Source: an uncultured Lachnospiraceae bacterium (GTDB lineage: Bacteria > Bacillota > Clostridia > Lachnospirales > Lachnospiraceae). Taken from it: 64,000 bases of DNA. This document shows positions 2,682-31,859 of the stretch, piece after piece (within the stretch, counting starts at the first letter, position 1; the number at the start of each line of letters is the position of its first letter). The stretch lies in the NCBI GenBank assembly GCA_948989975.1, contig CARHSH010000001.1, positions 82,906-146,905 of the forward strand, written 5' to 3'. The notes below the pieces were generated by a model. The model saw only the letters and a program-made list of their open reading frames with translations, had not been told where the DNA came from and did no database searches. The position numbers and the translations under genes were made by a program.

Positions 2682-2687
2682 GAAGAT

Positions 2688-3569: not shown

Positions 3570-3597
3570 AACTTTTAGAGATTGAGAGGAATTTAAA

Positions 3598-4599: not shown

Positions 4600-4609
4600 A
4601 GGGATTCAT

Positions 4610-6067: not shown

Positions 6068-7490
6068 CATTCAAAAAGAGAGCAGGATAGTCCTTTACGG
6101 GCATTCGCAATTTGACATTGTGAAAGATAAATTCCGGGAACTAAAAGAACGTGGATATCAGGTGCTTGGATATATAGATCAAAGGGCAAAAGAGATTGAA
6201 ACGTATGTACAGGCGCCTTGTTGGACAGTAGAAGATTTTCCAGTTGGGCTAAAAGAACGTCAAGACATCGTAATTATATTGTTATTGCAAAATGCGCGGA
6301 TGCATGAGTCCATTGTATCTTCACTTTGCGGCAGGGGATTTAAAAAATTTTTATTTTTACCGGAAAAAGCGGATACATCTGAGAAAACATGTATGGTGCA
6401 AAAGTACAATGCCTTTATACGGTCAGAATATGATGAGTTGATGGGGATTCCTGAATGGGACAGCTTGTGTTTAAATTCTGTAAAAGGTGGAAAGCGGTTT
6501 TTGAAATGTGGAAAAGAACGCTGTACGCTTTTGGTTCCGGTGGAAATGCTGTTTCTTTATGAACAGGAGCAGTCTTTAGAAGAAAATATCGCGTTTGCAG
6601 AGGATTATCTGGAATTATTTGCGGTATTAGAAGGAAAGGCATTTGAATGCGGACGTTATTTTAATTTCATGGGAGCGGTGGAGAAGGAAGAAAAAGAAAA
6701 ATTACTGGCTGACCGTTTGGCGTTATATTGTTTGTGGGAACATTACAGACACTGCGATATAAATTATTTTATAGAAGCGGCTGCGCTTGTTTCATGGAAC
6801 CGGAGAGGATATTTTAATATTATTGACGGGCATCATAGAGTGATTTATCTGATGGCAAAGGGGTATAAGAAGATTCCCGTATCCATGCCGCTTAAAGATT
6901 ATGATAAGTGGATAGGAGAGGCAGATCAGGCATTGTCCGCTGCGCTGCGCAGATTGCGCGTCCCAATTCCACATCCGTTTTTTTTGAATGAAGAATGTAT
7001 CTATGAAACGCACTGGCAGAAAGTGATTCATTATTTATATGCGGCAGGACAAAGCAGGGACTGCAGGTTTGTGGAAATAGATACTTATATGGGATATTAT
7101 GCGGGGGCTTTCCAGAGAATTGTAAAAAAAGAAGCTCTGATAGTTTTAGAGAATGAGACGGATAAACGCTTATGTGAAAGTATGCAAAGGCTCATGCATC
7201 AAAAAATACCCATTTTGAACTATCCAGAAGTTATGTTTCGCGAAACCGATCTTGTCTATCTGAAATTGGCTGGAAATGAGGAAGCGTCTTTTATGCGTTT
7301 TATAAAGGACGTAACTGGACAGTGTATTTTGCTGGATATTCCTTGGGAAGAAGAAGGGAAGACGTTAAAAGAGGCTGTCCGCATTCTTGGGGGAGATTTG
7401 AAACAGATAGGCAGTTATCATAGAGATAAGGCGTATGGAATTTATGTGATTGAAAGGAGTGTTGGCAATTATGGCAGAGGTGACGACTAG
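6060..7490 (+). CDS. Uncharacterised protein, paralog 2 of 3 (NeuD-N-like plus ParB/Srx-like DGHHR)
   Basis: Start ATG at 6060 overlaps the stop of paralog 1 by 8 nt (RBS GGAGAAATG). Motifs: IVLYGHSQF...YQVLGYIDQRAKEIE; FNIIDGHHRVIYLMAKGYKKIPV. Confidence 0.5.
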   Translation: MFDIQKESRIVLYGHSQFDIVKDKFRELKERGYQVLGYIDQRAKEIETYVQAPCWTVEDFPVGLKERQDIVIILLLQNARMHESIVSSLCGRGFKKFLFLPEKADTSEKTCMVQKYNAFIRSEYDELMGIPEWDSLCLNSVKGGKRFLKCGKERCTLLVPVEMLFLYEQEQSLEENIAFAEDYLELFAVLEGKAFECGRYFNFMGAVEKEEKEKLLADRLALYCLWEHYRHCDINYFIEAAALVSWNRRGYFNIIDGHHRVIYLMAKGYKKIPVSMPLKDYDKWIGEADQALSAALRRLRVPIPHPFFLNEECIYETHWQKVIHYLYAAGQSRDCRFVEIDTYMGYYAGAFQRIVKKEALIVLENETDKRLCESMQRLMHQKIPILNYPEVMFRETDLVYLKLAGNEEASFMRFIKDVTGQCILLDIPWEEEGKTLKEAVRILGGDLKQIGSYHRDKAYGIYVIERSVGNYGRGDD

Positions 7491-8496
7491 AAGCCTTAAA
7501 AATGAAAGGACAATACTGCGGGACGTTGTCCCGGTGGACACGCCTTTTTTATTAGGCATATTTTTAGGCGATATATGTAATTTTAAATGTAAATACTGCA
7601 TTCAGTCTGCAGATGAATCCGTTGAGGAGAAAAAACAGTTAGTAAGGAAATTTTTAGAGTGGGAAACATTTCTTAAAATTGCAGATTCTGCAAAACAATT
7701 TCCGAAGAAAATTAAAACGGTATTGCTGACAAGCATCGGGGAGCCTTTACTGCATCCGGAAATTGTAAAGATGTTAGAGTATATGAACCGGATTGGGCTG
7801 GCGGATAACTATGAAATCATTACAAATGCATCTATGCTTTCTGTAGATTTGGGAAGACAATTAGTGGATGCAGGGCTTACAAGATTATGCGTTTCGCTTC
7901 AGGGGCTGACGGCGGAAAAATATAAAGACGTCTGCGGCGTAGAGATAGACTATGATGCATTTTACCAAAATTTAAAGAGTTTTTACGAATACAGCAGGGG
8001 AAAGTGCAGCGTACATATTAAGACAGTGGATCTTTCGTTAGAGGACGGTGAAGAAGACGCATTTCTAAAACTCTATGGTCCGATATGCGACACGATTTAC
8101 ATTGATAAAGTCGCTCCGGTGTTTAAAGGCGTAGATTATAGCGGCATTGTGCTTGACGGGGAGCCTTATACAGAAGATAAATACAGGCAAAATGCGGCTG
8201 TGTGCTGTAGTTCTATTTTTTATACATTGTATACGCTTGCGGACGGACGGATCGCTCCTTGTTGTGACCATCCGCAGCCGGTTATTTATGGGGACATTAA
8301 CCAGACTGGGCTTGTGGAAGCATGGTCTTCTGAAAATAGAAAACGGTTTTTAAGACAGCATTTGACCCATAAAAGATGCGAAAACGGCATTTGCGCACAG
8401 TGCGCCGCGCCGCTTGTAAGAGAGTTTGACAGTGATAAGTTAGATGGCTGTGAGGAAGCAATCTTGGCCCGTTTAGAGGGGGGTATTTTTCATTAA
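7471..8496 (+). CDS. Radical SAM enzyme with C-terminal SPASM/twitch-type Cys-rich domain
   Basis: CNFKCKYC (Cx3Cx2C) near the N-terminus. C-terminal cysteines CCSS...CCDHPQP...CENGICAQC. RBS GGAG sits 12 nt upstream of ATG 7471; the track's alternative start is TTG at 7450. Confidence 0.7.
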   Translation: MAEVTTRSLKNERTILRDVVPVDTPFLLGIFLGDICNFKCKYCIQSADESVEEKKQLVRKFLEWETFLKIADSAKQFPKKIKTVLLTSIGEPLLHPEIVKMLEYMNRIGLADNYEIITNASMLSVDLGRQLVDAGLTRLCVSLQGLTAEKYKDVCGVEIDYDAFYQNLKSFYEYSRGKCSVHIKTVDLSLEDGEEDAFLKLYGPICDTIYIDKVAPVFKGVDYSGIVLDGEPYTEDKYRQNAAVCCSSIFYTLYTLADGRIAPCCDHPQPVIYGDINQTGLVEAWSSENRKRFLRQHLTHKRCENGICAQCAAPLVREFDSDKLDGCEEAILARLEGGIFH

Positions 8497-8554
8497 CGAG
8501 AAGAAATTTAGTTTTCAAGATGCAGAAGAAGTTTATATATATGGCGCATCTTAT

Positions 8555-9784
8555 ATGGGTTCCGTCACAGGAAAAGCTTTGTTGGAAAATGGAAAGCGGA
8601 TATGTGGGTTTATAGACAAACGGGCAAAGGACATACGCCAATGCATCGGGTATCCGGTCTATGACATTGAGACATTGAAAAAGAAAGCGGGCAGACACGC
8701 TGTGATTTTTGTGGCGGTGAAAAATGTTTTTTATCATATGGACATTGCAGTGGAATTGTACGCAAATGGCTTTGAGAGAATTATATATAAGTCATGCCAT
8801 GCCATTCATGGAACGATGTCAGGGGAAGAACAGTTATTAGATAAGGCGTATGAACTGATATATAAAACAGGGGACATTCCGGATTTTGAGATACCTATTG
8901 TACTGCCAAAACAGGAATTTCAATGGACGCCAAGCAGGATTCTTTTAGAAACAGAGGAATATGTGACATTGAACGCGCCGTTAGAACAGATTTATACGGG
9001 AGTGACTGCGGCGAAATGGACAAATACGCCCGTTTTGTCATTAATTCCGTATATTGAACTGTTCCGTTATTTTGAAGGGGACAGCCAGTGCAGGCCAGAT
9101 GATTATATTGCGCTTTGTGAGGAAGGGGCGCGGAGTGAACAGATTGAAATAACGGATAGTTGGAAGCAATATGCGCTCGAAAACCGGTTTCATATTTTCG
9201 GGCAAATGCGGTGGCAGTATGAACATGAACCTGAGTTTTTTACCGTACAGGCGCCAGAGGCGGCATGGGACAAAAGGGGATATTTCCGCCTGCTGACCGG
9301 CAAGCACAGGATTTGTTTTTTGATTGCGATGGGAAAGACAAGCGCGCCGCTGAAAATTCGCAAAGACACATGGAGGGCGATCTGTGAAGATCCTAAATTA
9401 CATGAAATCCGCCAGATCTTAGAACGCAGCCCAAATGCGCAAATGCCGCTTCCGCACATTTATTTTCAGGGAAACCGGCAGTTTCATTGTATATTTTATC
9501 AAAAAAAGCTGAGAGAGATTTATTGGCAGATGTACAAAACCGGACAAATGTGTGGGCAGGAAAGAGAAACTTTAGAAATTCTCGATCAGACGCAGGACAG
9601 CGGATATTTTTCCCTGATATTTTCACAGATGGGCTTTTGCGTCTACAGGGATTTCAGGCTGTCTTCCGATAAGAATGAAATTTATCAGAAATTGGGAATG
9701 AAAATTTCAGAACGGGCAGATAGCGCTTCAAAAACGCGGATAAAGCTGGATGGGGAGGGAAATTTTCAAAATGAAAACGACTGA
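8555..9784 (+). CDS. Uncharacterised protein, paralog 3 of 3 (ParB/Srx-like TGKHR); N-terminal Rossmann motif partly lies upstream of the only in-frame ATG
   Basis: FRLLTGKHRICFLIAMGKTSAPL. The in-frame upstream codons encode EEVYIYGASY, which aligns to LWIYGAAFGG in paralog 1, but there is no ATG/GTG/TTG between the stop at 8474-8476 and ATG 8555. Confidence 0.45.
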   Translation: MGSVTGKALLENGKRICGFIDKRAKDIRQCIGYPVYDIETLKKKAGRHAVIFVAVKNVFYHMDIAVELYANGFERIIYKSCHAIHGTMSGEEQLLDKAYELIYKTGDIPDFEIPIVLPKQEFQWTPSRILLETEEYVTLNAPLEQIYTGVTAAKWTNTPVLSLIPYIELFRYFEGDSQCRPDDYIALCEEGARSEQIEITDSWKQYALENRFHIFGQMRWQYEHEPEFFTVQAPEAAWDKRGYFRLLTGKHRICFLIAMGKTSAPLKIRKDTWRAICEDPKLHEIRQILERSPNAQMPLPHIYFQGNRQFHCIFYQKKLREIYWQMYKTGQMCGQERETLEILDQTQDSGYFSLIFSQMGFCVYRDFRLSSDKNEIYQKLGMKISERADSASKTRIKLDGEGNFQNEND

Positions 9785-11315
9785 TTTAGAGTTTGAATAC
9801 AATGAGCGGGCAGACGGCTATATTTATGTGAATGAAGACAAGTTAGAAACAGAGGTAAAAGAATTGCTCCGGTCGGGAAAAGACGTTGAAGCGCTGCGCA
9901 TGAACGAAGAAATTTCAAGGGAGGCCTATCTGTGCCTTACAAAAAAACGGGAAGCTGTTTTAAAGTGGTACCATTTCAAAGAAGAATCTGAGATTTTAGA
10001 GATTGGAGCCGGATACGGGGAACTGACAGAATATCTTTGCCGCCACAGCAGGCATGTGACGAGTTATGAGAGGAAAACCGAGCGCGCCGACATTATTAAA
10101 ATGCGCTGCCAGCCATATGGGAATTTGGACTGCCATTCCGGTTTATTACAAGATATGCGTTGGCAAAAGACATATGATTATATATTTTTGCATGATATTT
10201 TAGCATTATCCCGAAAGTTTTTTAAAGGGGAAGATGCAAGCGTAGAGATGCTTAAGTTTTTGCTTCCATATCTTAAAGAAGACGGAAAATTTATCATAAC
10301 GGTTGAAAACCGTCTTGGGCTTAAGTATTTTGCCGGGGCGGCAGAAGAAATTTCCTCACAGTTTTTTTGGGGGCTTAATCTTTTTGACGAAGATGAAAGA
10401 GGCAGGACATTTTCAAGAAAAGAATTGGAACGGGTTCTGCAAAAAAGTGGTTTAGAAAATATAAATTGGTTTTATCCGTATCCTGATTTGGCATATCCGT
10501 TAGAGATTTATACAGATGAAGTCATGGATAAAATGGGATATGGGATCTCTATGCCGGATTATGAAATTGTTTCAGACCGTTATCAGTTTTTTGATGAGCA
10601 GAGAATGTTTTGGGCTTTAAGGAACGAGGGGATTGCAAATCGGTTTGTGAATGCGTTTTTTGTGGAATGTTCCAGAAAAGAATCCGGCAAACAGCTTTTA
10701 TTTGCGGATTTAAAAAATGGATTTACCATAAAGGAACAGACAGAACAAGGCTTTATAGACGGGAGTGGGAATCTTCTTCCTAAAGGGGAACGGCTCGATG
10801 TGTATCTGGCAGGAAAACTTCAGGAAACCGTGAATTGCAATCTGGGCGGCAAGAATCCATTTATATCTGAAATTTATGATGTGTTCCGTGAAATATATTT
10901 GTATTTACAGAAGTCTTTTTGCAGGATACAGGATTTCTATTATTCAGACGGCAAGATTGCGCTGCATGAACAAAAGCAAGAGAAAAAACCGGCGTCGGAG
11001 TATTGGCGCTGGGAATTGGTTTATGAATGGTATTTCAGGCATGTCATGTTTTACAGAAACGCAAAAAGAAGAATTTTGCTGGAAGATTTGCTGGAGATTG
11101 TACAGGTAAACACCGGGCATATTGCAGAATATTTGAAGGTTTGGAAAGATAAGTCAGAGAAGCATTATATTACGCCGAGATTGTCGCAGAATATGTTTGA
11201 TTTTGAAGCGGAAGCGGCAAAGGATGCGAGGTATTTTGGGCAGGAACTAATAAATAAAAGGACATTAAAAGATAAATTGGAAAGTATGTGGAGCATAGGC
11301 GGGGAAACGGAATGA
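9771..11315 (+). CDS. Class I SAM-dependent methyltransferase with ~300-aa C-terminal extension of unknown function
   Basis: LEIGAGYGELTEYL (motif I) and DYIFLHDIL. RBS GGGGAGGG upstream of ATG 9771. Overlaps the end of the preceding gene. Confidence 0.55.
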   Translation: MKTTDLEFEYNERADGYIYVNEDKLETEVKELLRSGKDVEALRMNEEISREAYLCLTKKREAVLKWYHFKEESEILEIGAGYGELTEYLCRHSRHVTSYERKTERADIIKMRCQPYGNLDCHSGLLQDMRWQKTYDYIFLHDILALSRKFFKGEDASVEMLKFLLPYLKEDGKFIITVENRLGLKYFAGAAEEISSQFFWGLNLFDEDERGRTFSRKELERVLQKSGLENINWFYPYPDLAYPLEIYTDEVMDKMGYGISMPDYEIVSDRYQFFDEQRMFWALRNEGIANRFVNAFFVECSRKESGKQLLFADLKNGFTIKEQTEQGFIDGSGNLLPKGERLDVYLAGKLQETVNCNLGGKNPFISEIYDVFREIYLYLQKSFCRIQDFYYSDGKIALHEQKQEKKPASEYWRWELVYEWYFRHVMFYRNAKRRILLEDLLEIVQVNTGHIAEYLKVWKDKSEKHYITPRLSQNMFDFEAEAAKDARYFGQELINKRTLKDKLESMWSIGGETE

Positions 11316-12178
11316 AAGAGTTGACAAAGGAGATTATCCAATATATCGGCGCGGTCAAAAAGGAGTATGAAAAGAGGTATCATATCCAGATTTTAATGTG
11401 GACAGTGAGAAAATCATTTCTGAGGGGCTTGGAACGAAAGACAAGTGATTTGGACGTTGTGTTTGTGTTCCAAAATTTAGATTCAAAGAAGAAAAAAATT
11501 ATCTTTGAGCGCGCAGACCGCAGAATTGAGCTGCAATGCTGGGACATACAGGATATATTGGAAATCATTGCTGAGAATAAAAGGCGATCTTTACAGGAAA
11601 AGAAGTTTTTCCCATACTATAAAAGCAATGAGTTGAAACATTATATTTTGGATTATTACCATGGCTTTTATGCCGGCTGGGATTCTGCGCTGATGAAAGA
11701 TGAGTATGGATTTTGCCAAAATTGCGGGAAACATATCTTTCATCTTTATGAACCGTTTGTTGTGGCAAATATGTTGTATTTGGATTTAAAAGGGCAGTGT
11801 AAACGCGTCGAAATGGGGTATTGGCTGTCTTTAAATGAATACATTAATGCTATCTGGTCAGGGTTAGCGGGGCTTCATGCGCTTTCAAATGGCAGGCCTT
11901 CCGATACGCAGATACGGTTTTTGGCGGAAACGTATCTGAACGGGGAGGAGGCCAAAATGCTACTAAGCTATGTTGCGCATTTTAAACAGACAGTCCAAAA
12001 GCAGAGTAATTACTGCAATATGGAAGCGTTAAACCAAATGCTTTTGGATCTTAAGCTTAGGTTGGAGAAAAAAATGAAACAGTTTAACATACAAGAGATT
12101 GACATAGAAAAAGAACTTTTGGATATTGAAGGTCAATTAAAGGAAATGAGGAATGTTTATGAAAATTCAAGTTGCTGA
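11312..12178 (+). CDS. Pol-beta-superfamily nucleotidyltransferase-fold protein
   Basis: RGLERKTSDLDVVFVF matches the G[SG]x9-13DxD nucleotidyltransferase signature. ATGA stop/start overlap with the upstream gene. Confidence 0.45.
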   Translation: MKELTKEIIQYIGAVKKEYEKRYHIQILMWTVRKSFLRGLERKTSDLDVVFVFQNLDSKKKKIIFERADRRIELQCWDIQDILEIIAENKRRSLQEKKFFPYYKSNELKHYILDYYHGFYAGWDSALMKDEYGFCQNCGKHIFHLYEPFVVANMLYLDLKGQCKRVEMGYWLSLNEYINAIWSGLAGLHALSNGRPSDTQIRFLAETYLNGEEAKMLLSYVAHFKQTVQKQSNYCNMEALNQMLLDLKLRLEKKMKQFNIQEIDIEKELLDIEGQLKEMRNVYENSSC

Positions 12179-13964
12179 TTATGTTGCGCAGTTTTTAATG
12201 GAAAAAGGAATTACGGATCTTTTTTCAGTAGTAGGCGGCGGCTCGATGTTTCTAAATGATGCGTTTGGGAGGGCAAAAGGCATACGCTGTATTTATAACC
12301 ATCATGAGCAGGCCTGCGCCATGGCGGCAGAAGCTTATTTTAAGTATAAAAACCAAATGGCGGCTGTCTGCGTGACGTCAGGGCCGGGCGGGACAAATGC
12401 TCTGACAGGGGTTCTTGGCGCATGGCAGGATAGCATCCCGTTATTTATTATTTCCGGACAGGTTCGTTATGAGACAACGGTAGACAGCGCAGGACTTTCT
12501 TTGCGGCAGTTTGGGGGACAGGAGCATCAAATTGTGGATACTGTCAAAAATATAACGAAGTATGCGGCAATGGTGAAAAAAGCGGAAGACGTCAGATGGC
12601 ATTTGGAAAAAGCGTATGATATGGCAATGGATGGAAGACGGGGGCCGGTTTGGCTGGATATTCCATTAAATGTGCAGAGCGCTGAAATTGAAACGGAATC
12701 GTTAAAAGGGTTTCAGAAACCTGAGAAAGACACAGAGAAGGCAAAAGGGTATGTAGATTCTATTTTGGAAGAATTAAAGAAGGCGGAACGGCCGTTAATC
12801 ATAGCGGGTTCCGCAGTCCGGACTTCCGGCGCGCAAGACGTTTTTCTCAGGCTGTTGGAACGGCTGCATATTCCGGTGACATATCCTCTGGTCGTGTCCG
12901 ATTTGGTAAGCAATGAGAATCGTCAGGCGGTAGGCTGTTTTGGAGGGGCAGGGACGAGAGCCGGAAATTTTGCAGTCCAAAATGCGGATTTACTGCTTGT
13001 GTTTGGATGCAGAATGGCATTTTCCCATATTGGGTTTAATTATGAAAAATTTTCTCCGGCTTCCAGAAAGATTGTAGTAGACATAGATGAGGCGGAACAG
13101 TCAAAACCCACGATGAAACGCGATATAAAAATATTGGCAGACGTACGGGATATACTTGAAGAAATGGAAAAGCGTGATTTATGCGGTATGCCTTCCTATC
13201 CAAAATGGAATGCGTATTGTCAGGAATTAAAGAAAAGATTTCCGATCTATCAAAAGCATCATGAAACAAGCGAAGATGGAAGGGTCAATCCTTATTTTAT
13301 GGCAAAAGCATTGTCGGATCGTATGGATGAACATGGCATTATCGCGCTTGGCAATAGTTCGGGATTAGATCCAAAACTTCAGTATGGCATAGAGAAACAA
13401 GGGGAACGGGTTATTTTAAATTGTAACTGCGGTTCTATGGGATACTGCCTTCCGGCAGGCATTGGCGCCGCGGCGGCTTCGGGCAGACGGGTGGTTGTAT
13501 ATACAGGGGACGGATGTATGCAGATGAACATACAGGAGCTTTTAACCATTTCTCACAATAAACTTCCGGTAAAAATCATTGTGCTGAATAATAAAGGATA
13601 TGGCGGAGTGGTCGCTACGCAGACTAATTTTTTCGATGGGCATCTGTGCGGCTGTACGGAGGAATCCGGCATCAGTATGCCGGACTTTGAAAAGCTTGCG
13701 TATGCGTATGGATTTCAATATGTCAGGGCCGAGAACCATGAGCAGGTAGAAAAGGCTTTGGATGCATTATTATGTGATGACGCCCCGGCAATATGTGAGG
13801 TGTATCAAGATATGATTCAGGGGATTGAACCTAGGGTTTCAAGCAGGAAGTTAGAAGATGGGACATTGGTTTCAACCGGAATTGATGACTTAGCCCCATT
13901 CCTTCCTTTAGAAGAATATGAGGCCTGCCAATATGAGAATTGGGTGAAAGGCGGAAAAGAATGA
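12153..13964 (+). CDS. Thiamine-diphosphate-dependent enzyme of the acetolactate synthase / YerE-like carboligase family
   Basis: 603 aa. N-terminal TPP-enzyme pyrimidine-binding domain (VVGGGSMFLND, CVTSGPGGTNALTG). C-terminal TPP-binding GDGCMQMN...LNNKGYGGV. Confidence 0.7.
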   Translation: MFMKIQVADYVAQFLMEKGITDLFSVVGGGSMFLNDAFGRAKGIRCIYNHHEQACAMAAEAYFKYKNQMAAVCVTSGPGGTNALTGVLGAWQDSIPLFIISGQVRYETTVDSAGLSLRQFGGQEHQIVDTVKNITKYAAMVKKAEDVRWHLEKAYDMAMDGRRGPVWLDIPLNVQSAEIETESLKGFQKPEKDTEKAKGYVDSILEELKKAERPLIIAGSAVRTSGAQDVFLRLLERLHIPVTYPLVVSDLVSNENRQAVGCFGGAGTRAGNFAVQNADLLLVFGCRMAFSHIGFNYEKFSPASRKIVVDIDEAEQSKPTMKRDIKILADVRDILEEMEKRDLCGMPSYPKWNAYCQELKKRFPIYQKHHETSEDGRVNPYFMAKALSDRMDEHGIIALGNSSGLDPKLQYGIEKQGERVILNCNCGSMGYCLPAGIGAAAASGRRVVVYTGDGCMQMNIQELLTISHNKLPVKIIVLNNKGYGGVVATQTNFFDGHLCGCTEESGISMPDFEKLAYAYGFQYVRAENHEQVEKALDALLCDDAPAICEVYQDMIQGIEPRVSSRKLEDGTLVSTGIDDLAPFLPLEEYEACQYENWVKGGKE

Positions 13965-14872
13965 AACTTTGTTTAGGGACTGTCCAACAGGGATTGGAAT
14001 ATGGGATTAATAATAAGTATGGAAAGCCTTCAAAAGAGTATAGCCAAAAAATCTTTTACGAAGCGGTAAAGCATGGGATTACAATGTTTGATACGGCAAG
14101 GGCATATGGAGATGCAGAATTGCTTTTGGGGGAATATTTAAAAGAACATGGGAATCGAAATGAAATCAAGATCATATCAAAACTCCGTCCGAACATACTA
14201 GAAGGTTGTAAGGATATATACGATACGATATGCCGGGAATGTGAAGGCACTTTAAAGCGGATAGGCGTAGAATCCTTAGACGGATATTTGCTCCATACGC
14301 CGGAGTACATCCGAGATCCCAAAGTCGTTTCGGCTCTTTTAAAATTAAAGGAGGAGGGATATGCTTCGCATATAGGCGTATCCATTTACAATATAGAAGA
14401 CGGGGACGTTGCAATCAATACGGGGGCAGTTGACTATATACAGCTTCCTTTTAGCATATTTGACCAGCGCGGAAAAAACAGCGGATTTCTCCGGCGGGCA
14501 AAAGAAGCCAAAATTACGGTATTTGCAAGAAGCATATTTTTGCAGGGATTGTATTTTATGGATGCGGGCAGTCTGCCGGAAAAAGTGAAACGGGCAGAGC
14601 CTATGCTGCGGAACTGGGAGCTGATTTTAGAGGAGCGTCACGCCAATCGGGAAGAAGTCTTAATTGAATTTGTGAAACAGTCCAAAGAGATTGATTATCT
14701 TGTGTTTGGAGTAGACACAGTGGAACAGTTACAAAGAGATATTTCTGTATTCGAAAGCGAAAGTAAATTAGATGAAACTATTTGGAACATAATCGGTGAA
14801 AAATTTTCCGATGTGGAGGAAAGCATTATAATACCAAGTTTATGGGCGAAACAAGAAAGGAAGGGAAAATGA
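13961..14872 (+). CDS. Aldo/keto reductase family oxidoreductase
   Basis: FDTARAYGDAE, LDGYLLH, IGVSIYN: AKR signatures. ATGA overlap with the TPP enzyme. Confidence 0.7.
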   Translation: MKLCLGTVQQGLEYGINNKYGKPSKEYSQKIFYEAVKHGITMFDTARAYGDAELLLGEYLKEHGNRNEIKIISKLRPNILEGCKDIYDTICRECEGTLKRIGVESLDGYLLHTPEYIRDPKVVSALLKLKEEGYASHIGVSIYNIEDGDVAINTGAVDYIQLPFSIFDQRGKNSGFLRRAKEAKITVFARSIFLQGLYFMDAGSLPEKVKRAEPMLRNWELILEERHANREEVLIEFVKQSKEIDYLVFGVDTVEQLQRDISVFESESKLDETIWNIIGEKFSDVEESIIIPSLWAKQERKGK

Positions 14873-15571
14873 TGGGAGCAAAAAACATTTTTTTAACGAC
14901 AGAAGGGGACGCATGGTATAGGAGAAACCGTGAAAAGTTAGAAGAAGAAAGTGGATTTTCGGCGGTGGATTTAATGATTGATTTTCTAAATAGACAAAAA
15001 AAATCTCTGGGGGGGGGTAAATGGCTTTTCGTGGGATAAGCTGAATATTTTGGAAATCGGGTGTAGTTATGGATATAATCTGGCAAAGTTTTGCGAATCA
15101 TTTTCTTGTCAATGTTATGGAATTGAACCGTCAAAAGAAGCGGTAGAAGATGGAAATAGAAGATATAAGGATCTGCCAATTCAATTAACTCAGGGAACAG
15201 GGGATCTTTTGCCGTATGAGGCGGAATCTATGGATGTGGTTATAATGGGATTTTGCATGTTGTGGATGGAGCGGAAAGACATATTGCAGGCATACGCGCA
15301 AGCAGACAGAGTTTTGAAAACAAATGGGATTATGATGGTTTATGATTTTGATGCGAAAATGCCATATCTTAGGGATAATATCCATAATAGAGAAGTGTTT
15401 ACATATAAAATGGATTATGCGCAGCCGTTCATGGCTTTTCCAAACTATTATTTAATGGATAAGACCGTATTTTGCCATATGGGAAATTTTTTTGACAAAA
15501 GAATACAGGAAAGAATATCTTTGCAGATTTTATATAAAGAGTCTTTGGAGGATGCGTATAGGAAAGGATAA
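14869..15571 (+). pseudogene. Class I SAM methyltransferase (paralog of 15598..16293) split into 65-aa and 173-aa pieces by a +1 frameshift at a G9 tract; candidate phase-variable (currently OFF) gene
   Basis: Upstream frame gives MMGAKNIFLTTEGDAWYRRNREKLEE...FLNRQKKSLGGGKWLFVG*. The +1 frame directly after the G tract gives VNGFSWDKLNILEIGCSYGY, collinear with the intact paralog (MNGFAWERFKILEVGCSYGY). Removing one G (G8) restores a single ORF. Confidence 0.7.
15009..15017. repeat. Homopolymeric G9 tract inside a coding sequence (slipped-strand mispairing site)
   Basis: ctgGGGGGGGGtaaatgg. The paralog carries aagagcggtatgggaatgaatgg at the equivalent site, i.e. no homopolymer. Confidence 0.9.
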
Positions 15572-15597
15572 AGGACCAGAGAAAGGCAGGCGGTAAA

Positions 15598-16293
15598 GTG
15601 GAGGCAAAGGAGATATTCTTAACGACAGAAGGGGACGCATGGTATAGAAGAAACCGTGAAAAACTGGAAGAAACAAAAAATTTTATTGCGGCAGAGATAA
15701 TCATAGAATTTTTAAACAGACAAAAGAGCGGTATGGGAATGAATGGCTTTGCATGGGAGCGTTTTAAGATTTTAGAAGTCGGATGCAGTTATGGTTATCA
15801 TTTGGCAAAGTTTTGTGAAGCGTTTCCCTGCCAGTGCTATGGAATTGAGCCGTCAAAAGAAGCGGTGGAAGACGGCAGTCATAAATATAAAGGCCTGCCT
15901 ATGCAGTTAGTTCAGGGGACAGGTGATTCTCTGCCATATGAAGCGGAATCTATGGATATTGTCATTATGGGGTTTTGTATGTTTTGGATGGATAGAAATC
16001 ATCTGCTGCAGGCGTATGCGGAAGCGGACAGGGTCTTAAAACCAAAGGGATTGCTTATAATTTATGATTTTGACACGAAGCTTCCCTATGTCAGAGACAA
16101 TGCGCACAGTAAAGATGTGGATACATTTAAAATGGATTATGCAAAAGCGTTGACGGCTCTGCCGCATTATTACTTAATGGATAAAACGGTGTTTTGCCAT
16201 AAAGGAAATTATTTTGATGAAGATATACAGGAAAGGATTTCCATGCAGATTCTTTATAAGGAGGATTTCAAAGATGCATATATCAGAGGGTGA
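15598..16293 (+). CDS. Class I SAM-dependent methyltransferase (intact paralog)
   Basis: LEVGCSYGYHLAKF, DIVIMGFCMFWMDR, LKPKGLLIIYD. ~60% identical to the frameshifted copy. Confidence 0.65.
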   Translation: MEAKEIFLTTEGDAWYRRNREKLEETKNFIAAEIIIEFLNRQKSGMGMNGFAWERFKILEVGCSYGYHLAKFCEAFPCQCYGIEPSKEAVEDGSHKYKGLPMQLVQGTGDSLPYEAESMDIVIMGFCMFWMDRNHLLQAYAEADRVLKPKGLLIIYDFDTKLPYVRDNAHSKDVDTFKMDYAKALTALPHYYLMDKTVFCHKGNYFDEDIQERISMQILYKEDFKDAYIRG

Positions 16294-17065
16294 ACGGCCG
16301 GATGTTTTGATTATGATACAGGCGAGGACGGGGTCTTCTAGGCTGGCGAATAAAGTTCTGCATAAAATAAAAGGAATCACGGTATTGGAACATGTGATTA
16401 ACCGGATGCAAAAGTGTGAAAATGCGGACGAAGTGATTGTTGCGACAACTGTTGAACAAAATGATTTAGAGATTGTAAAAATTTGCGCAGAAAAAGGCGT
16501 GCGGGTTTATTGCGGTTCAGAACAGGATGTGCTTGACAGGTATTATCAGGCGGCGCGTTTATTTGGACGGGACGGGGAAAAACATATTGTGAGAATTACA
16601 GCGGATTGCCCTATGCACGATTTTAGGATTGTAGACAGGGTAATTAAAGAGCATTTTGCCCATCATGCAGATTATACCTCTAATGCTGAGAGTGAGACAT
16701 TCCCAGATGGGTTAGATGTGGAAGTCTTTCGGTTTGAGGCATTAGAACAGGCATGGCGGGAAGCCAAATTGGCATCGGATCGTGAGCATGTGACGCAATA
16801 TATCAGAAGATGTGAAACAATGACGAAATATTCCGTAGAAAGCGCGGTTAATTACAGAGAGGAACGCTGGACGCTTGATGAGCCGGAAGACGAAGCGTTT
16901 ATAAAAGAAATTTTTGACAGGTTATATGAGAAAGACCCATTCTTTGGAATGGAGCAGGTATTGGAGACGGAACGAAAAGAGCCGGAATTAAAGAAAATAA
17001 ATGCCGCTTTAATTCGAAATGAAGGGTTATTGAAATCATTAGACCGGGATTATATTGTGAAATAA
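16274..17065 (+). CDS. pseF: CMP-nonulosonate (acylneuraminate/pseudaminate) cytidylyltransferase, CTP_transf_3 family
   Basis: IQARTGSSRLANKVL...VATT at the N-terminus (SpsF/NeuA/PseF family). Start ATG 16274 overlaps the upstream stop. It lies within a pse gene run. Confidence 0.6.
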   Translation: MHISEGERPDVLIMIQARTGSSRLANKVLHKIKGITVLEHVINRMQKCENADEVIVATTVEQNDLEIVKICAEKGVRVYCGSEQDVLDRYYQAARLFGRDGEKHIVRITADCPMHDFRIVDRVIKEHFAHHADYTSNAESETFPDGLDVEVFRFEALEQAWREAKLASDREHVTQYIRRCETMTKYSVESAVNYREERWTLDEPEDEAFIKEIFDRLYEKDPFFGMEQVLETERKEPELKKINAALIRNEGLLKSLDRDYIVK

Positions 17066-17078
17066 GGAGGGGTAAAGT

Positions 17079-18389
17079 ATGGGAAAATCCCAAAAACTTT
17101 ATCAAAGGGCGAAATCAATGATTCCGGGCGGGACGCAGTTACTGAGCAAGCGCCCTGAAATGTTTTTGCCGGAATACTGGCCGGCATATTATAAGAAGGC
17201 AAAAGGATGCTATGTATGGGATCTGGATGACCGTAAATATATGGATGCAAGTTATATGGGAATAGGCGCGAATGTCCTTGGATATGCAGATGAGGATATA
17301 GATCTTGCCGTTGAATGGGCCATTTCTAACGGGAGTATGTGTACATTAAATGCGCCGGAAGAAGTGGCTTTGGCGGAAAAAATTATAGAATTACATCCGT
17401 GGGCAACGCAGGTCAGATATGCAAAAACAGGCGGTGAAGCATTGGCGGTTGCAGTCCGCATTGCGCGGGCATATGCAAAAAAGGACATTATTTTATTTTG
17501 TGGGTACCATGGCTGGAGTGATTGGTATCTGGCCGCAAATTTAAGTGAGGATTCGGCGCTGGACGGTCATTTGATTCAGGGATTAGAGCCGGCGGGCGTA
17601 CCGCGGGGATTGGCGCAGACAGCGTTTCCATTCCGTTATAATGACATAAACAATTTTTTAGAGCTTATTGAAACATACAAAGGGAGGATTGCGGCAGTCG
17701 TTTTAGAGCCGATTCGGAATATTTATCCGAAAAATGATTTCTTGCAGACTGTCCGGGAAGTGACGAAAAGAGAGGATATTGTCTTGATAGCGGACGAGGT
17801 GTCTGCCGGATTCCGTTTGAATTGCGGAGGGGCGCATCTTACATTAGGATTTGAACCGGATATGGCAGTGTTGGCGAAGGCGTTAGGCAACGGGTATCCG
17901 ATGTCTGTTATTTTTGGGAAAGCCGGATATATGGAATCTGCGCAGAGCACATTTATCAGCAGCACTTACTGGACGGAACGGACGGGACTTTGCGCGGCGC
18001 TGGCCGTTATCAAAAAATACCAAGCGGAGCATGTAGAAAAACATCTTGACAGAATAGGGAAGATGGTTTTAGAGGGCTGGAAAGATGCGGCAAACCAATA
18101 TGGGGTACAGATAAAGCTTTCCGGCATACCGCCGCTGGCCCACTTTGAATTTGAATTGGACAGCCCGCTTGCATACAATACTTACTTTACGCAAGAAATG
18201 TTGAAAAAAGGATTTTTGGCAACGAATGCGTTTTATGCGTCGTATGCGCATAAGGAAACGGATATTTTGGAATATTTGAATGCGGCAAACCAAGTGTTTC
18301 GGCAAATATCGGAAATTACAGCATCGTCAGATATTATGCGGCATTTAGACGGCCCATTGCGCCAGACCGGATTTCAAAGGCTTACCTGA
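17079..18389 (+). CDS. Class III (PLP-dependent) aminotransferase, glutamate-1-semialdehyde aminomutase-like
   Basis: 436 aa. SMIPGGTQLLSKRPE, YAKTGGEALAVAVRIARAY, LIADEVSAGFR: typical AT-III motifs. Confidence 0.65.
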   Translation: MGKSQKLYQRAKSMIPGGTQLLSKRPEMFLPEYWPAYYKKAKGCYVWDLDDRKYMDASYMGIGANVLGYADEDIDLAVEWAISNGSMCTLNAPEEVALAEKIIELHPWATQVRYAKTGGEALAVAVRIARAYAKKDIILFCGYHGWSDWYLAANLSEDSALDGHLIQGLEPAGVPRGLAQTAFPFRYNDINNFLELIETYKGRIAAVVLEPIRNIYPKNDFLQTVREVTKREDIVLIADEVSAGFRLNCGGAHLTLGFEPDMAVLAKALGNGYPMSVIFGKAGYMESAQSTFISSTYWTERTGLCAALAVIKKYQAEHVEKHLDRIGKMVLEGWKDAANQYGVQIKLSGIPPLAHFEFELDSPLAYNTYFTQEMLKKGFLATNAFYASYAHKETDILEYLNAANQVFRQISEITASSDIMRHLDGPLRQTGFQRLT

Positions 18390-18413
18390 CACTAGAAGTA
18401 GGAGAAAGGGAAT

Positions 18414-19454
18414 ATGGAAATGAAAATGTATCAGCTTATGAAAGAGCGCGCCTATGTAATTGCGGAAATGTCGGCAAATCATGCGGGCTCGAAAGAAACC
18501 GCGGTAAAACTAATTCATGCAGCGAAAATGGCGGGAGCGGACTGTGTGAAAATACAGACTTACACGGCGGATACGATGACGTTAGATTGTGATAACGCAT
18601 ATTTTCATATTGGAGATGGGACATGGAAAGGCGATACACTGTATTCTTTGTATGAAAAAGCGTATATGCCATGGGAATGGCAGGCGGAATTAAAGGAGGT
18701 CACAGAGACATTAGGCATGGATTTTTTGTCCACTCCATTTGATAAGACGTCGGTGGATTTTTTGGAAAGCCTTGACGTGGCGGCGTATAAGATTGCATCG
18801 TTTGAGCTGACAGATCTTCCGCTGATTCAGTATGTGGCATCGAAAGGAAAACCGGTGATTCTGTCGACGGGCATGGCGGAGTTGTATGAAATAGACGAAG
18901 CTGTAAAAACAATCCAGAGGGAACATAATTCTCAAATTATTTTAATGCACTGCGCAAGCGCGTATCCGGCGATTACAGAGGATATGAATTTGTATACAAT
19001 GCAAAATTTAAAAGAGATTTATCAAGTTCCGGTCGGGCTGTCCGATCATTCCATGGGTTCTGTCGGAGCCATTACAGCGGTGGCGTTAGGCGCGCAAATT
19101 ATTGAAAAACATTTTTGCCTTGACCGGGCCATTGAAACGCCGGATTCCTCATTTTCCATGAACCCTGCTGAGTTTCGGCAGATGGTATGTGACATACGGC
19201 AGGCGGAAAAAGCGTTAGGATTGGTCCGGTATGGGGTGAAAAGCCAAGAAAATCCAAATCTTGGCTTTAGGAGGTCTATTTTTGTCACCCAAGACATTAA
19301 AAAGGGGCAGAAGCTGACAGAAGAAAATATCCGGGTGATTCGGCCGGGATATGGGGCGCCTCCTAAATTTTATGGGGAAGCCTTGGGACAGACGGCTTTA
19401 AGTGACCTGAAAAGAGGCACACCTCTTAAGATTTCGGATATAGGAAGTGTGTAA
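18414..19454 (+). CDS. pseI: Pseudaminic acid synthase (NeuB family)
   Basis: Collinear with PseI: IAEMSANHAGS, VKIQTYTADTMTLD, YKIASFELTDLPLIQYVA, GLSDHS, IEKHFCLDR. Confidence 0.8.
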   Translation: MEMKMYQLMKERAYVIAEMSANHAGSKETAVKLIHAAKMAGADCVKIQTYTADTMTLDCDNAYFHIGDGTWKGDTLYSLYEKAYMPWEWQAELKEVTETLGMDFLSTPFDKTSVDFLESLDVAAYKIASFELTDLPLIQYVASKGKPVILSTGMAELYEIDEAVKTIQREHNSQIILMHCASAYPAITEDMNLYTMQNLKEIYQVPVGLSDHSMGSVGAITAVALGAQIIEKHFCLDRAIETPDSSFSMNPAEFRQMVCDIRQAEKALGLVRYGVKSQENPNLGFRRSIFVTQDIKKGQKLTEENIRVIRPGYGAPPKFYGEALGQTALSDLKRGTPLKISDIGSV

Positions 19455-19469
19455 AAAGAGGGGCGGCTT

Positions 19470-20474
19470 ATGAAAAAAAGAGTGTATATCCGGGCGGACA
19501 TGAACCCTCAAATAGCGACCGGCCATATCAGGCGCTGCCTTGCAATTTCAGACGCGGTCAGGGAACTTGGGGGAGAGGCGGTTTTTTTGACGGCGGATTT
19601 TAATGCAAAACGGCTGTTAGAAGAACATGGGCTAAGATATTATGTTTTAAACAGCAGATGGGATAGGATGCAAGATGAATTAGAGACATTGTATCAGATA
19701 ATCCAGAAAGAAAATATAGATACATTATTAATTGACAGTTATCAGGTTACAAAAAAGTATTTGGAAAATCTTAAGAAAGCTGTTAAAATTGTATTGCTGG
19801 ATGATTTATTTTTGTTTGATTATCCGGCAGACGAAATCATATGTTACGCAAATTACTGCCATCAGTTTCCCTATGATAAAAAAAGATATGAAAACTTATA
19901 TTTGGGCATGGACTATACACCCCTGCGGCGTGTGTTTTGGAAGCCCGAAAAGAAGGAAATCCGAAAAGAAATCAGGCGGGTTTTGGTCTGTTCCGGCGGC
20001 AGTGATATGTTTGGGGCGATAGAAACGATAGTGGGGAAATTAAAAGATCGGTATGAGTGTATCGATGCAGTTTGCGGATTGTATTCTGATTCGTATGAAA
20101 AGCTGTTGGAAACTTATGGAGGATATAAAAATATCCGAATCGTAAAAGACGTAAAAGATATTGAAACTTATATGCTTCAGGCAGATGTGGCAATTTCTGC
20201 GGGCGGGACTGCGTTGTATGAATTATGCGCAGTTGGCGCGCCGGCCATTTCTTATGCAATAGCGGACAACCAGCTTAAAAATGTTATGCAGTTTGAAAAA
20301 GACGGTCTCATTTCATATGCCGGGGACATACGGCGGGAAGATATTAGTGAAAACGTTTTAACTTATTTAGAGAAATATGAGAGCCAAACGACGCGCAGCG
20401 AATTGTCACGGAAAATGCAAAGCGCTGTTGATGGAAAGGGCGCGGTTAGGATTGCAAAGGCTCTCATGGAATAG
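19470..20474 (+). CDS. pseG: UDP-2,4-diacetamido-2,4,6-trideoxy-beta-L-altropyranose hydrolase
   Basis: N-terminal IRADMNPQIATGHIRRCLAISDAV matches the PseG (GT28-like) GxGHxxR motif. 334 aa. Confidence 0.7.
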   Translation: MKKRVYIRADMNPQIATGHIRRCLAISDAVRELGGEAVFLTADFNAKRLLEEHGLRYYVLNSRWDRMQDELETLYQIIQKENIDTLLIDSYQVTKKYLENLKKAVKIVLLDDLFLFDYPADEIICYANYCHQFPYDKKRYENLYLGMDYTPLRRVFWKPEKKEIRKEIRRVLVCSGGSDMFGAIETIVGKLKDRYECIDAVCGLYSDSYEKLLETYGGYKNIRIVKDVKDIETYMLQADVAISAGGTALYELCAVGAPAISYAIADNQLKNVMQFEKDGLISYAGDIRREDISENVLTYLEKYESQTTRSELSRKMQSAVDGKGAVRIAKALME

Positions 20475-20483
20475 AAGCAGGTG

Positions 20484-21611
20484 ATGAAAATGTATATTCC
20501 ATATGGAAAGCAGTTTATAGATGAAGAAGATATAGCGGCAGTGGTTGAGACGCTGAAAAGCGATTGCATTACGACAGGCCCTAGGATAGCGGAGTTTGAG
20601 CAGGCTGTGTGTGAGTATACAGGGGCGAAATACGCGGTGGCGGTTTCGAGTGGAACGGCGGCTCTGCATATTGCCTGTCTGGCGGCAGGCATAGGAAAAG
20701 ATGACGAAGCAGTTACGTCTCCGATGACATTTGCGGCATCTGCAAATTGTGTGTTGTATTGTGGGGGAAGGCCTGTTTTTGCGGACATTAAACCAGATAC
20801 CTATAACTTAGATCCGAATGACGTTAGAAGGAAAATAACGAATAAGACGAAAGCGGTCATTGCGGTAGATTATACAGGGCAGCCGTGTGAGTTGGAAGAA
20901 TTAAAACAAATTGCAAAAGAACGTCAGTTGTATTTGATTGAAGATGCGGCTCATGCCATAGGGGCGGAATACAAGGGCAGGCGGGTAGGCTCAATTTCTG
21001 ATATGACGACATTCAGCCTGCATCCGGTTAAACATATTACGAGCGGAGAGGGCGGCATTGTAACGACAAATAATAAGGAACTCTATAAAAAATTGATTTT
21101 ATTCCGGAATCATGGTATAACAAGAGAGAGAGAAGCTATGACGAAAATGGAAGGCGGCTGGTATTACGAACAGTTAGATTTGGGGTATAATTACCGGATT
21201 ACTGATTTTCAGTGCGCGCTTGCCGCATCACAGCTTAAAAAATTAGATCGGTTTATACAAAAAAGGACGGAACTTGCCGGACGCTATGAGTATGCGTTTC
21301 AAGATATGGAAGATGTCGTTTGCCCGTATCAAAAAGAAGGATGCAAAAACAGTTGGCATTTATATGTGATACAGGTGAAAAACAGGGCAGAGACATTCCG
21401 GAAAATGAGAGAAGCCGGGATTGGCGTAAATGTGCACTATATTCCGGTTTATAAGCATCCGTATTATCAGAGCCTTGGATATGGAAATGTAGAATGTAAA
21501 AATGCAGAATCGCTATATCAGCATATTATCAGTTTGCCTCTCTATTATATGCTTACATATGAACAGCAGGATTATGTGATTGGGCAGTTAAAGAAAATTT
21601 TAATGGGATAA
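20484..21611 (+). CDS. pseC: UDP-4-amino-4,6-dideoxy-N-acetyl-beta-L-altrosamine transaminase (DegT/DnrJ/EryC1 family)
   Basis: TTGPRIAEFEQAVCEYTGAKYAVAVSSGTAALHIA, AVDYTGQPCELEEL, LIEDAAHAIGAEYKGRRVGS, FSLHPVKHIT. Confidence 0.8.
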   Translation: MKMYIPYGKQFIDEEDIAAVVETLKSDCITTGPRIAEFEQAVCEYTGAKYAVAVSSGTAALHIACLAAGIGKDDEAVTSPMTFAASANCVLYCGGRPVFADIKPDTYNLDPNDVRRKITNKTKAVIAVDYTGQPCELEELKQIAKERQLYLIEDAAHAIGAEYKGRRVGSISDMTTFSLHPVKHITSGEGGIVTTNNKELYKKLILFRNHGITREREAMTKMEGGWYYEQLDLGYNYRITDFQCALAASQLKKLDRFIQKRTELAGRYEYAFQDMEDVVCPYQKEGCKNSWHLYVIQVKNRAETFRKMREAGIGVNVHYIPVYKHPYYQSLGYGNVECKNAESLYQHIISLPLYYMLTYEQQDYVIGQLKKILMG

Positions 21612-21621
21612 GGGGCATTTT

Positions 21622-22074
21622 ATGGAAGGTTATTTGAAAGCGGCGGAAGAATCAGATATGGATATTTTGTTTGAATGGGCGAATGACCCCATTGTCCGCC
21701 AAAATTCTTTCCATTCAGAAAGAATACTTTATGAGGATCATAAGAAATGGTTTTATGGCATATTAGAGGGCAGTGGATGCAGGCAATATATTTATATTTG
21801 TAATAATGAAAAAATCGGACAGGCGCGTATTACAGTAAACGGATTTGAAGCAGAAATTTCGTATAGCATATGTCCGCAAAAAAGAAATCAGGGGCATGGG
21901 GCAAAGTTATTACAGTTAATCTATCGGCAAGTGAAAGAGGAGTTTCCTCAGATTCGGAAATTGATAGGAAAAGTCAAACCAGAAAATATTGCGTCTGCCA
22001 AAGCGTTTCTTCATGCAGGTTATGGGGAGCAGTATTCTGTTTATGAAAGGCAGATGGAGTTACAGGCAGAGTAA
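21622..22074 (+). CDS. pseH: GNAT N-acetyltransferase (UDP-4-amino-altrosamine N-acetyltransferase)
   Basis: 150-aa GNAT fold (QGHGAKLL) placed immediately after pseC, as in pse loci. Confidence 0.65.
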   Translation: MEGYLKAAEESDMDILFEWANDPIVRQNSFHSERILYEDHKKWFYGILEGSGCRQYIYICNNEKIGQARITVNGFEAEISYSICPQKRNQGHGAKLLQLIYRQVKEEFPQIRKLIGKVKPENIASAKAFLHAGYGEQYSVYERQMELQAE

Positions 22075-22155
22075 AATATTGGAAAAACGGAACCGTTTTC
22101 GGCAAATATGTGGTAAGGTGAGAGACGAAAATAGGAGAAAAGCAGAGGTGTCTAA

Positions 22156-22935: not shown

Positions 22936-22980
22936 CCAAAGGTTAGGTCTATGCACAATACATAAAAGGAGGGCTGAAAA

Positions 22981-24812: not shown

Positions 24813-24828
24813 AAAGGATAGGGGTATT

Positions 24829-26172: not shown

Positions 26173-26212
26173 CAGGCATTCTATCCATAGGCGGGAAGGA
26201 ATTAAAAGAAAA

Positions 26213-30840: not shown

Positions 30841-30866
30841 GCAGGAGGAAAAAGGAGGCATTTAAT

Positions 30867-31847: not shown

Positions 31848-31859
31848 GGGAGAAATGTT

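Follow-up and report, generated by a model that had tools for sequence, protein, structure and literature searches.

The DNA analyzed here is a stretch of 64,000 nucleotides (the window) from an uncultured Lachnospiraceae bacterium (GenBank assembly GCA_948989975.1, contig CARHSH010000001.1, positions 82,906 to 146,905 of the forward strand). It contains a gene for a class I S-adenosylmethionine (SAM) methyltransferase, here called MT1, which is split by a run of nine G's (G9) at codons 47-50 of a 233-codon gene and is followed by a tandem paralog, MT2. Positions are those of the window, and tracts of other lengths are written G7, G8 and so on. The features at this locus, with product lengths in amino acids (aa), are as follows.

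13961..14872, + strand: aldo-keto reductase gene, translationally coupled to MT1, a conserved cassette member
14869..15571, + strand: whole MT1 gene, ON at G8 and G11, OFF at G7, G9 and G10
14869..15039, + strand: MT1 5' fragment as read with G9, 56 aa (frame reading)
15009..15017, + strand: G9 homopolymer, the putative switch; by sequence, the ON frame codes L47(ctG)-G48-G49-V50(Gta)
15018..15571, + strand: MT1 3' part in the +1 frame, Rossmann core including SAM motif I ILEIGCSYG (Methyltransf_11/25)
15598..16293, + strand: MT2, tandem paralog without the tract, 231 aa (Pfam), always intact

MT1 starts at ATG 14869, within an ATGA that also contains the stop codon of the aldo-keto reductase gene upstream. 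With G9, the frame from this ATG reads MMGAK...NRQKKSLGGG, continues for six off-frame codons (KWLFVG) and stops at 15037-15039. The first-pass annotation of this DNA had located the break at the G9 of 15009-15017, where nine G's are indeed present, and had noted correctly that the upstream frame ends shortly afterwards; its distance of seven codons needs to be corrected to six further codons plus the stop. The +1 frame after G9 reads VNGFSWDKLNILEIGCSYGY... up to a stop at 15569-15571 and, as that annotation had also stated, is collinear with the intact MT2. Removal of one G (G8) restores a single open reading frame (ORF) of 233 aa, and addition of two (G11) restores one of 234 aa. The 233-aa ORF had been predicted for G8; our frame reading agrees, and a public contig encoding exactly that protein exists. 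With G7 or G10, a TAA immediately 3' of the tract terminates translation, giving products of 49 aa (G7) and 50 aa (G10). The tract length therefore toggles MT1 between full-length (233/234 aa) and truncated (56/50/49 aa) products, and the gene carries in its 5' part the uninterrupted homopolymer of at least ~7 bases that defines a simple-sequence-repeat contingency locus. All OFF states cut the conserved N-terminal EGDAWYRRN motif off from the catalytic core. The earliest possible start in the +1 frame is TTG at 15050, and the resulting 173-aa remnant, judged from its sequence, is unlikely to function since it begins within motif I.

Variant loci were retrieved from public contigs by exact-protein look-ups, with a neighboring gene as the query for L001 and with the predicted allele products for the others. 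The eight loci compared with the window over their aligned length are listed below.

L001: G8, 21,312 bases aligned, 0 substitutions
L006: G10, 13,988 bases aligned, 0 substitutions
L009: G7, 10,127 bases aligned, 0 substitutions
L017: G11, 20,705 bases aligned, 0 substitutions
L018: G11, 13,806 bases aligned, 0 substitutions
L020: G11, 6,837 bases aligned, 0 substitutions
L002: G10, 20,153 bases aligned, 1 substitution
L019: G11, 9,720 bases aligned, 1 substitution

The MT1 tract was the sole indel relative to the window in each locus. It differed from the window in 8/8 loci, and substitutions totaled 2 in ~117 kb; the rate at which the tract changes exceeds the per-base substitution rate by at least four orders of magnitude. 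An A8 run at 14996-15003, only five bases upstream of the tract, and the other A/T run of eight bases that was compared never varied. In L001, a metagenome contig, MT1 was called as an intact 233-aa gene. G10 was found in L002-L006, G11 in L017-L020, and a true G7 in L009 only. Thus, all lengths from G7 to G11 occur, counting the G9 of the window, on near-identical backgrounds (0-1 substitutions over 7-21 kb), which supports the phase-variable tract proposed in the first pass. That proposal had named a uniform G9 and an assembly error as the outcomes that would speak against it. A G8 allele exists in L001, and an assembly error is not supported.

The abundance of each allele was estimated by exact-product look-ups over public contigs.

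G9: 220 contigs with the 56-aa product (P0122) and 101 with a 65-aa version starting at ATG 14842 (P0125)
G8: 39 + 20 contigs
G10: 30 + 15 contigs
G11: at least 7 contigs by look-up; 18 G11 contigs were read

The commonest public allele is G9, so that the tract of the window cannot be put down to an error restricted to this genome. OFF alleles account for ~85% of assemblies, and G8 and G11 together for ~15%. The exact MT2 protein (P0135) was present on 501 contigs and the exact 173-aa 3' product of MT1 on 345 contigs without a second lesion; the exact proteins of neighboring genes were found in 400-570 blocks of the public collection. One contig was explicitly labeled as mouse gut metagenome. 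A count that equated the 49-aa product with G7 was dropped, because nine of the ten displayed contigs end inside the tract and L009 alone is a true G7. Nine short-read contigs from different runs (L007, L008, L010-L016) stop within the MT1 tract, after G9 and in one case after G8. Such ends could reflect a branch of the assembly graph caused by mixed tract lengths or, equally, the 'G's end' artifact of Illumina sequencing, and we did not count them as evidence. Two MAG (metagenome-assembled genome) contigs from NCBI/ENA, L003 and L005, carry additional broken genes (radical SAM, thiamine-diphosphate enzyme, PseG-like, PseC) with small indels; these defects probably stem from lower assembly quality or a diverged strain, and both contigs were excluded as evidence. 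Scanning the JGI metagenome collection for the tract and its flanks gave no match, and the organism is apparently absent from that collection. A single-protein scan of species-representative genomes returned no relative, and the genome to which the window belongs is apparently missing or masked in that set.

A diverged lineage (L103-L108), in which the pooled neighboring genes show 0.076 synonymous differences per site (pS), keeps an uninterrupted G9, and L004, from another lineage, has G10. When the 3' part of MT1 was read in the ON frame and compared with L103, 13 synonymous and 7 non-synonymous differences were counted. The ratio of non-synonymous to synonymous differences per site (pN/pS) was 0.12, vs 0.11 for 17 neighboring genes pooled. 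The coding sequence is thus kept despite the OFF states, which indicates that MT1 is under purifying selection in a frame that only G8 or G11 restores, and that it is not a decaying pseudogene.

The distribution of run lengths sets the tract apart. The + strand of the window contains 645, 193, 51, and 6 G runs of three, four, five, and six bases, respectively, none of seven or eight, one G9, and one G10. On both strands only two G/C runs of seven or more bases exist, namely the G9 at 15009-15017 and the G10 at 761-770. Across 53 kb of the gene island in which MT1 lies, G/C runs of four, five, and six bases number 165, 40, and 2, those of seven or eight bases 0, those of nine bases 3, and those of ten bases 1. 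No G/C run longer than six was present in 30.6 kb of housekeeping genes of the same window.

The repaired MT1 protein matched PF08241 (Methyltransf_11) with 56.9 bits (cut-off 21.2) and PF13649 (Methyltransf_25) with 56.5 bits (cut-off 27), and MT2 was likewise well above the threshold for both families. SAM motif I (ILEIGCSYG) is conserved, and L61, E62, G64, and G68 are invariant in both alignments. The AlphaFold model of MT1 had a mean predicted local distance difference test score (pLDDT) of 85, and Foldseek returned methyltransferase matches at probability 1.0. The profile match, the Rossmann-like fold, and motif I together identify MT1 as a class I SAM methyltransferase. In the AlphaFold model, the tract residues L47-G48-G49-V50 belong to a coil of residues 46-57 that links the N-terminal helical hairpin to strand beta-1. 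Alignment of homologues showed that their length differences fall exactly at this loop. Since the length of the loop varies among homologues, two (G8) or three (G11) glycines should both be tolerated. NCBIfam could not assign MT1 or MT2 to a specific family (the top match, DVU_1556, scored 46-53 bits vs a cut-off of 155), and sequence and fold searches of the PDB returned only generic class I methyltransferases, which gave no clue to the substrate.

At the tract site MT2 reads AGC GGT ATG GGA ATG and has no homopolymer. The two paralogs had been described as recently duplicated, which we cannot support: MT1 and MT2 share only 70% protein identity and 74% DNA identity, and together with two single-copy relatives they are pairwise 66-71% identical. 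This level of mutual identity indicates that the duplication or acquisition is old. In the syntenic clusters of two sister taxa, a single methyltransferase gene lies between the reductase and the cytidylyltransferase genes; its tract site reads GGC GGC or lacks glycines, and no G run exceeds six. The tract is therefore specific to this lineage, and the suggestion that it was acquired is in keeping both with these clusters and with the homopolymer-free site of MT2.

Homologue loci L021-L100 were taken from species-representative genomes, with the match at ~8001 in most of them. Methyltransferase genes with a tract of their own were found in the following loci, the first four from other Lachnospiraceae.

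L023: G9 at +85, ON
L033: G9 at +203, OFF
L024: G10 at +427, ON
L073: G9 at +427, the same site as in L024, OFF
L080, a Porticoccaceae MAG: G10 just before strand beta-1, OFF
L086, a Chlorobiaceae MAG: G8 just before strand beta-1, ON

Several of the tract-bearing Lachnospiraceae genomes carry MGBC labels, which we take to denote a mouse gut catalogue. Tracts of 8-12 bases were located at 8085, 8816, and 14319 in L023, at 8427, 11617, and 14824 in L024, at 8203, 12667, and 16172 in L033, at 8427 and 11609 in L073, at 3308 in L029, at 162 in L080, and at 8133 in L086, and several of them are out of frame in the deposited genomes. The neighboring genes with tracts code for an FkbM-like methyltransferase, a GNAT-formyltransferase fusion, a PseG-like protein, and a membrane acyltransferase. 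At a DNA identity of only 79.5%, L024 and L073 nevertheless have two tract positions in common, which argues for maintenance of the tracts by selection. In the tract-bearing homologue loci, G/C runs of 7-8 bases are absent and 12 runs of 9-12 bases are present; in Clostridia loci without such tracts, G/C runs reach 7 at most. All of the intragenic tracts examined (15/15, including that of a B12-binding radical SAM gene described below) are poly-G on the sense strand, encode glycine runs, and occur in genes for glycan modification. In 12/16 tracts (homologue loci, island, and the window tract at 15009) the base after the G run is T, and in 10/16 the next two bases are TA. As a result, one OFF frame often meets TAA or TAG at once, which may have been selected or may be a by-product of AT-rich flanks.

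MT1 lies within an island whose gene content points to nonulosonic acid biosynthesis. Its main parts inside the window, besides those listed above, are the following.

966..33402, + strand: island part inside the window, with PseB, PseC, PseH, PseG, PseI-like and a second NeuB / UDP-GlcNAc 2-epimerase / CMP-transferase set
16274..19454, + strand: SpsF-like cytidylyltransferase, class III aminotransferase, and NeuB-type nonulosonic acid synthase, downstream of MT2

Every long ORF from 966 to ~33400 is on the + strand. They encode a PseB-type dehydratase, enzymes of the radical SAM/SPASM type, a thiamine-diphosphate enzyme, the aldo-keto reductase, MT1, and MT2; next come the SpsF-like cytidylyltransferase, the class III aminotransferase, and NeuB, together with a PseG-like protein, a PseC-type aminotransferase, and a GNAT protein, and after these the second set of NeuB, UDP-GlcNAc 2-epimerase, and CMP-transferase. 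Pfam matches in the window include Polysacc_synt_2 (3598), CTP_transf_3 (16214 and 28991), NeuB (18414 and 26869), Glyco_tran_28_C (19470), DegT (20481), and GNAT (21622), and this co-located set identifies the island as a pseudaminic/legionaminic acid (nonulosonic acid) biosynthesis cluster. Upstream, the island runs more than 20 kb beyond the start of the window, with heptose-pathway, transketolase, and further radical SAM genes. Neither the window nor the 20 kb upstream of it showed a flagellin or Maf domain, so the island does not classify as a flagellin glycosylation island, and flagellin as the carrier of the glycan is an assumption. The rest of the window contains genes for riboflavin and biotin, for SpoVT, for a penicillin-binding protein, and for a chemotaxis receptor (58967). 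These genes fit a motile, spore-forming member of the Clostridia; as for motility, the receptor makes it no more than probable.

The methyltransferase family of MT1 comprises at least 2,156 relatives at E <= 1e-10. The 80 genome loci come from Clostridia, Bacteroidota, Proteobacteria, and Acidobacteriota, and in most of them the methyltransferase forms a cassette with an aldo-keto reductase, an SpsF-like cytidylyltransferase, and a class III aminotransferase (glutamate-semialdehyde-aminomutase-like). The cassette adjoins PseB, PseC, and NeuB genes, and NeuB lies within 8 kb of the methyltransferase in 48/80. We found no assignment of the chemistry of this cassette. Because the conserved cassette stands beside PseB, PseC, and NeuB, the substrate of MT1 is most likely a pseudaminic/legionaminic-type sugar or its N-acyl substituent. 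Flagellin of Clostridium botulinum carries legionaminic acid with an N-methyl-glutamyl group, the synthesis of which would need such an enzyme.

The MT1 switch is not isolated, as length variation was also observed at two other G tracts of the island, an intergenic one and one in a B12-binding radical SAM gene. The former and its surroundings are as follows.

761..770, + strand: second poly-G tract, G10, intergenic, 9 nucleotides upstream of the ATG of a 37-aa ORF
780..917, + strand: the 37-aa ORF (780-893; gene call) and a terminator-like hairpin (892-917; terminator scan)

On otherwise identical sequence, the tract at 761-770 was G14 in L101, G13 in L102, and G15 in L109. Its position suggests that it is probably the ribosome-binding site of the 37-aa ORF. 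The terminator scan found one hairpin vs 0.0 expected, which overlaps the stop codon of the 37-aa ORF and lies shortly before ATG 966, the start of the first long island gene; the ORF and the hairpin might form a leader-peptide attenuator with an output that depends on tract length. A sigma-D/FliA-type promoter upstream of the tract was considered and dropped, as no match had the consensus spacing, and a sigma-70 scan of 600-1000 gave nothing convincing upstream of the tract. The B12-binding radical SAM gene, ~10 kb upstream of the window start, encodes an intact protein of 546 aa with G9 (~300 contigs) and a 413-aa fragment with G8 (~105 contigs). Its tract (57-65 in L101, 60-67 in L102, 10288-10296 in L109) codes for the GGGG of ...ITVGGGGAF.... 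A further G9 lies at 2473-2481 of L109, within an ORF of 95 aa where the island reaches farthest upstream. In a family-2 glycosyltransferase gene on the minus strand upstream of the window (2779 in L101, 2780 in L102), T8 vs T7 separates intact from broken forms; the intact 323-aa protein was present on ~250 contigs and fragments of 107, 116, and 168 aa on 191, 83, and 91 contigs, respectively. This run may be an A/T switch or may mark two stable sublineages.

Taken together, it is very probable that MT1 is a working class I SAM methyltransferase gene of a pseudaminic/legionaminic-type island and that it is switched by slipped-strand mispairing at its poly-G tract. Switching is read here from assemblies, through the tract, the frame logic, the length variation, selection, the tracts of other species, and the fold. 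Gain or loss of one G at replication would change the frame of MT1, and the change would be reversible within a clone. Since the tract lies in a loop at codons 47-50 that appears tolerant of insertions, G8 and G11 would both give the full enzyme, with two and three glycines, respectively; G9 would leave a 56-aa stub, and G7 and G10 would stop translation at the TAA right after the tract. A population would then be a mixture of ON and OFF cells, the OFF state (G9) being the commonest in public mouse-gut assemblies. With MT2 always on, switching of MT1 would mean gain or loss of a single methyl group on a nonulosonic-acid glycan or its N-acyl side chain. Such a change may alter an epitope on the surface that antibodies, phages, or innate receptors recognize, and several variable G tracts in one island could generate combinatorial surface variation. 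In a wider sense, we lean toward the idea that tracts have arisen independently at five or more positions in a single methyltransferase family, that of a widespread pseudaminic-acid cassette, in at least four Lachnospiraceae species and two unrelated MAGs, that mouse-gut Lachnospiraceae run Campylobacter-like sets of poly-G switches, and that selection has repeatedly targeted methylation of this sugar as a means by which commensals hedge their bets against host antibody or phage.

Several observations weigh against a switch of MT1. A gene that is of little use at present could show the same share of OFF alleles. The counted contigs do not represent independent samples, as one sequencing run may recur as an ENA, a Logan, and an NCBI assembly. 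G tracts are error-prone for polymerases and technically hard for Illumina chemistry, for which the 'G's end' artifact has been described (PMC9187656). The presence of a G9 alone is also not significant, since a dinucleotide-preserving shuffle yields 1.16 G9 matches in 64 kb. The argument consequently rests on the run-length spectrum and on the variation in the population; the spectrum, which is clearly bimodal, is the decisive test, and the shuffle is not. Technical error is the core of one alternative, in which the tract has one true fixed length and the others are homopolymer miscalls of sequencing or assembly, and the many short-read contigs that break exactly at the tract would agree with it. 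We regard this as extremely unlikely, because five lengths (7 to 11) turn up repeatedly across many independent assemblies from different assemblers, whereas no other indel, even at A/T runs of 7-8 bases, occurs in the 7-21 kb aligned. Moreover, the window has the modal allele and is no outlier, and miscalls would explain neither the tract positions conserved between species 79.5% identical nor the purifying selection in the restored frame.

Alternatively, MT1 might be a pseudogene that is redundant with MT2 and whose tract drifts neutrally, with no adaptive switching. The dominance of OFF alleles and the intact paralog immediately downstream are what such a gene would show; the pN/pS level with that of the neighbors is not, nor is the lack of a second inactivating mutation in the hundreds of contigs that carry the 173-aa product. 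In addition, the uninterrupted tract persists at a pS of ~0.08, two species that are 20% apart in DNA share a tract at a homologous site, homologues have independent tracts at four other positions, and in-frame G8/G11 alleles make up the remainder of the assemblies. We therefore consider neutral drift of a dead gene quite unlikely. It could also be argued that G9 is not truly OFF, because slippage of RNA polymerase or ribosomal frameshifting supplies some enzyme; the tract would then tune the level of expression, and its length variation in DNA would be secondary. Loss of one base from the G9 transcript would restore the frame of MT1, and where long homopolymers consist of A or T, slippage during transcription is established. 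The sequence suggests no frameshift stimulator, and the length variation in DNA is by itself enough for ON/OFF states; a leak could coexist as a minor effect, whereas tuning in place of switching is very unlikely.

The proposed mechanism, a classical slipped-strand homopolymer contingency locus, is already known, and what is new is the taxon. The closest counterpart by description is Cj1325/6 (ptmH), a methyltransferase of the O-linked flagellar glycosylation locus of Campylobacter jejuni, which changes by 1-bp indels between derivatives of one strain; Cj1325 is a short 5' ORF of 255 nucleotides annotated as 'methyltransferase', with the indel at position 253/255 (PMC7677240). As in the MT1 island, several poly-G tracts lie in sugar-modifying genes of a nonulosonic-acid island and set ON and OFF frames, and the wider poly-G contingency set of C. 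jejuni extends to flagellin, capsule, and lipooligosaccharide loci. The host of MT1 differs in being a Lachnospiraceae-type commensal of the Clostridia and not an Epsilonproteobacterium, and in having no flagellin or Maf gene found near the island. The Campylobacter locus serves the legionaminic acid of flagellin, and ptmH, its methyltransferase gene interrupted by poly-G, has a role in N-methylacetimidoyl-Leg synthesis. No Campylobacter-named protein was among the 120 matches listed for the MT1 searches.

In Bifidobacterium breve UCC2003, intragenic G10-G11 slippage switches the pilus genes bbr_0113 and bbr_1889; the tract divides the first gene into an a and a b ORF, which become fused by a one-base change, and related species have equivalent tracts (PMC9187656). 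B. breve resembles the MT1 host in being a Gram-positive gut commensal with a range of tract lengths in the population. It differs in that it is a high-GC actinobacterium, in which G runs are less unusual, that the product is a pilus subunit rather than a glycan enzyme, and that switching was measured by error-corrected sequencing, whereas that of MT1 is inferred from assemblies. Intragenic G tracts in glycosyltransferase and acetylase genes of Neisseria and Haemophilus cause microheterogeneity of surface glycans (PMC9187656, PMC11868660); these organisms are Gram-negative mucosal pathogens, unrelated to the MT1 host and with different glycans. Clostridioides difficile belongs to the same bacterial class as the MT1 host and also shows heterogeneity of surface and motility, but its examples in a 2025 review (the flagellar switch, cmrRST, pdcB, and pdcC) are all site-specific promoter inversions (PMC11868660), unlike the repeat slippage of MT1.

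Full-text literature searches turned up neither a description of phase variation through repeats in Clostridia or Lachnospiraceae nor one of their nonulosonic-acid islands; the first pass had remarked that such a switch would be notable in a Clostridia-type genome. In the literature searched, gut commensals (Bacteroides, C. difficile) vary by DNA inversion, and repeat slippage is mainly a matter of pathogens. Here, an abundant mouse-gut commensal of the Clostridia has several length-variable G tracts in one glycan island, and its relatives have similar tracts. If the wider idea of repeatedly gained tracts holds, repeat-mediated phase variation, so far a hallmark of pathogens, would be a regular feature of abundant Clostridia commensals. 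Since the near-clonal organism is present in hundreds of public mouse metagenomes, ON/OFF ratios should be readable from existing data and comparable across host genotype, immunoglobulin A status, inflammation, and phage load. Annotation pipelines call such genes fragments or pseudogenes, which hides functional switchable genes of commensals.

Two RNA features were noted in the remainder of the window. A flavin mononucleotide (FMN) riboswitch at 33990-34151 (+ strand) precedes the ribD-ribE-ribBA-ribH operon and is ordinary. Two full-length TwoAYGGAY RNA motifs, at 48840-49005 (- strand) and 49636-49801 (+ strand), scored 135 and 120 bits, respectively; they are ~630 bases apart on opposite strands, between the penicillin-binding protein and ROK-family genes.

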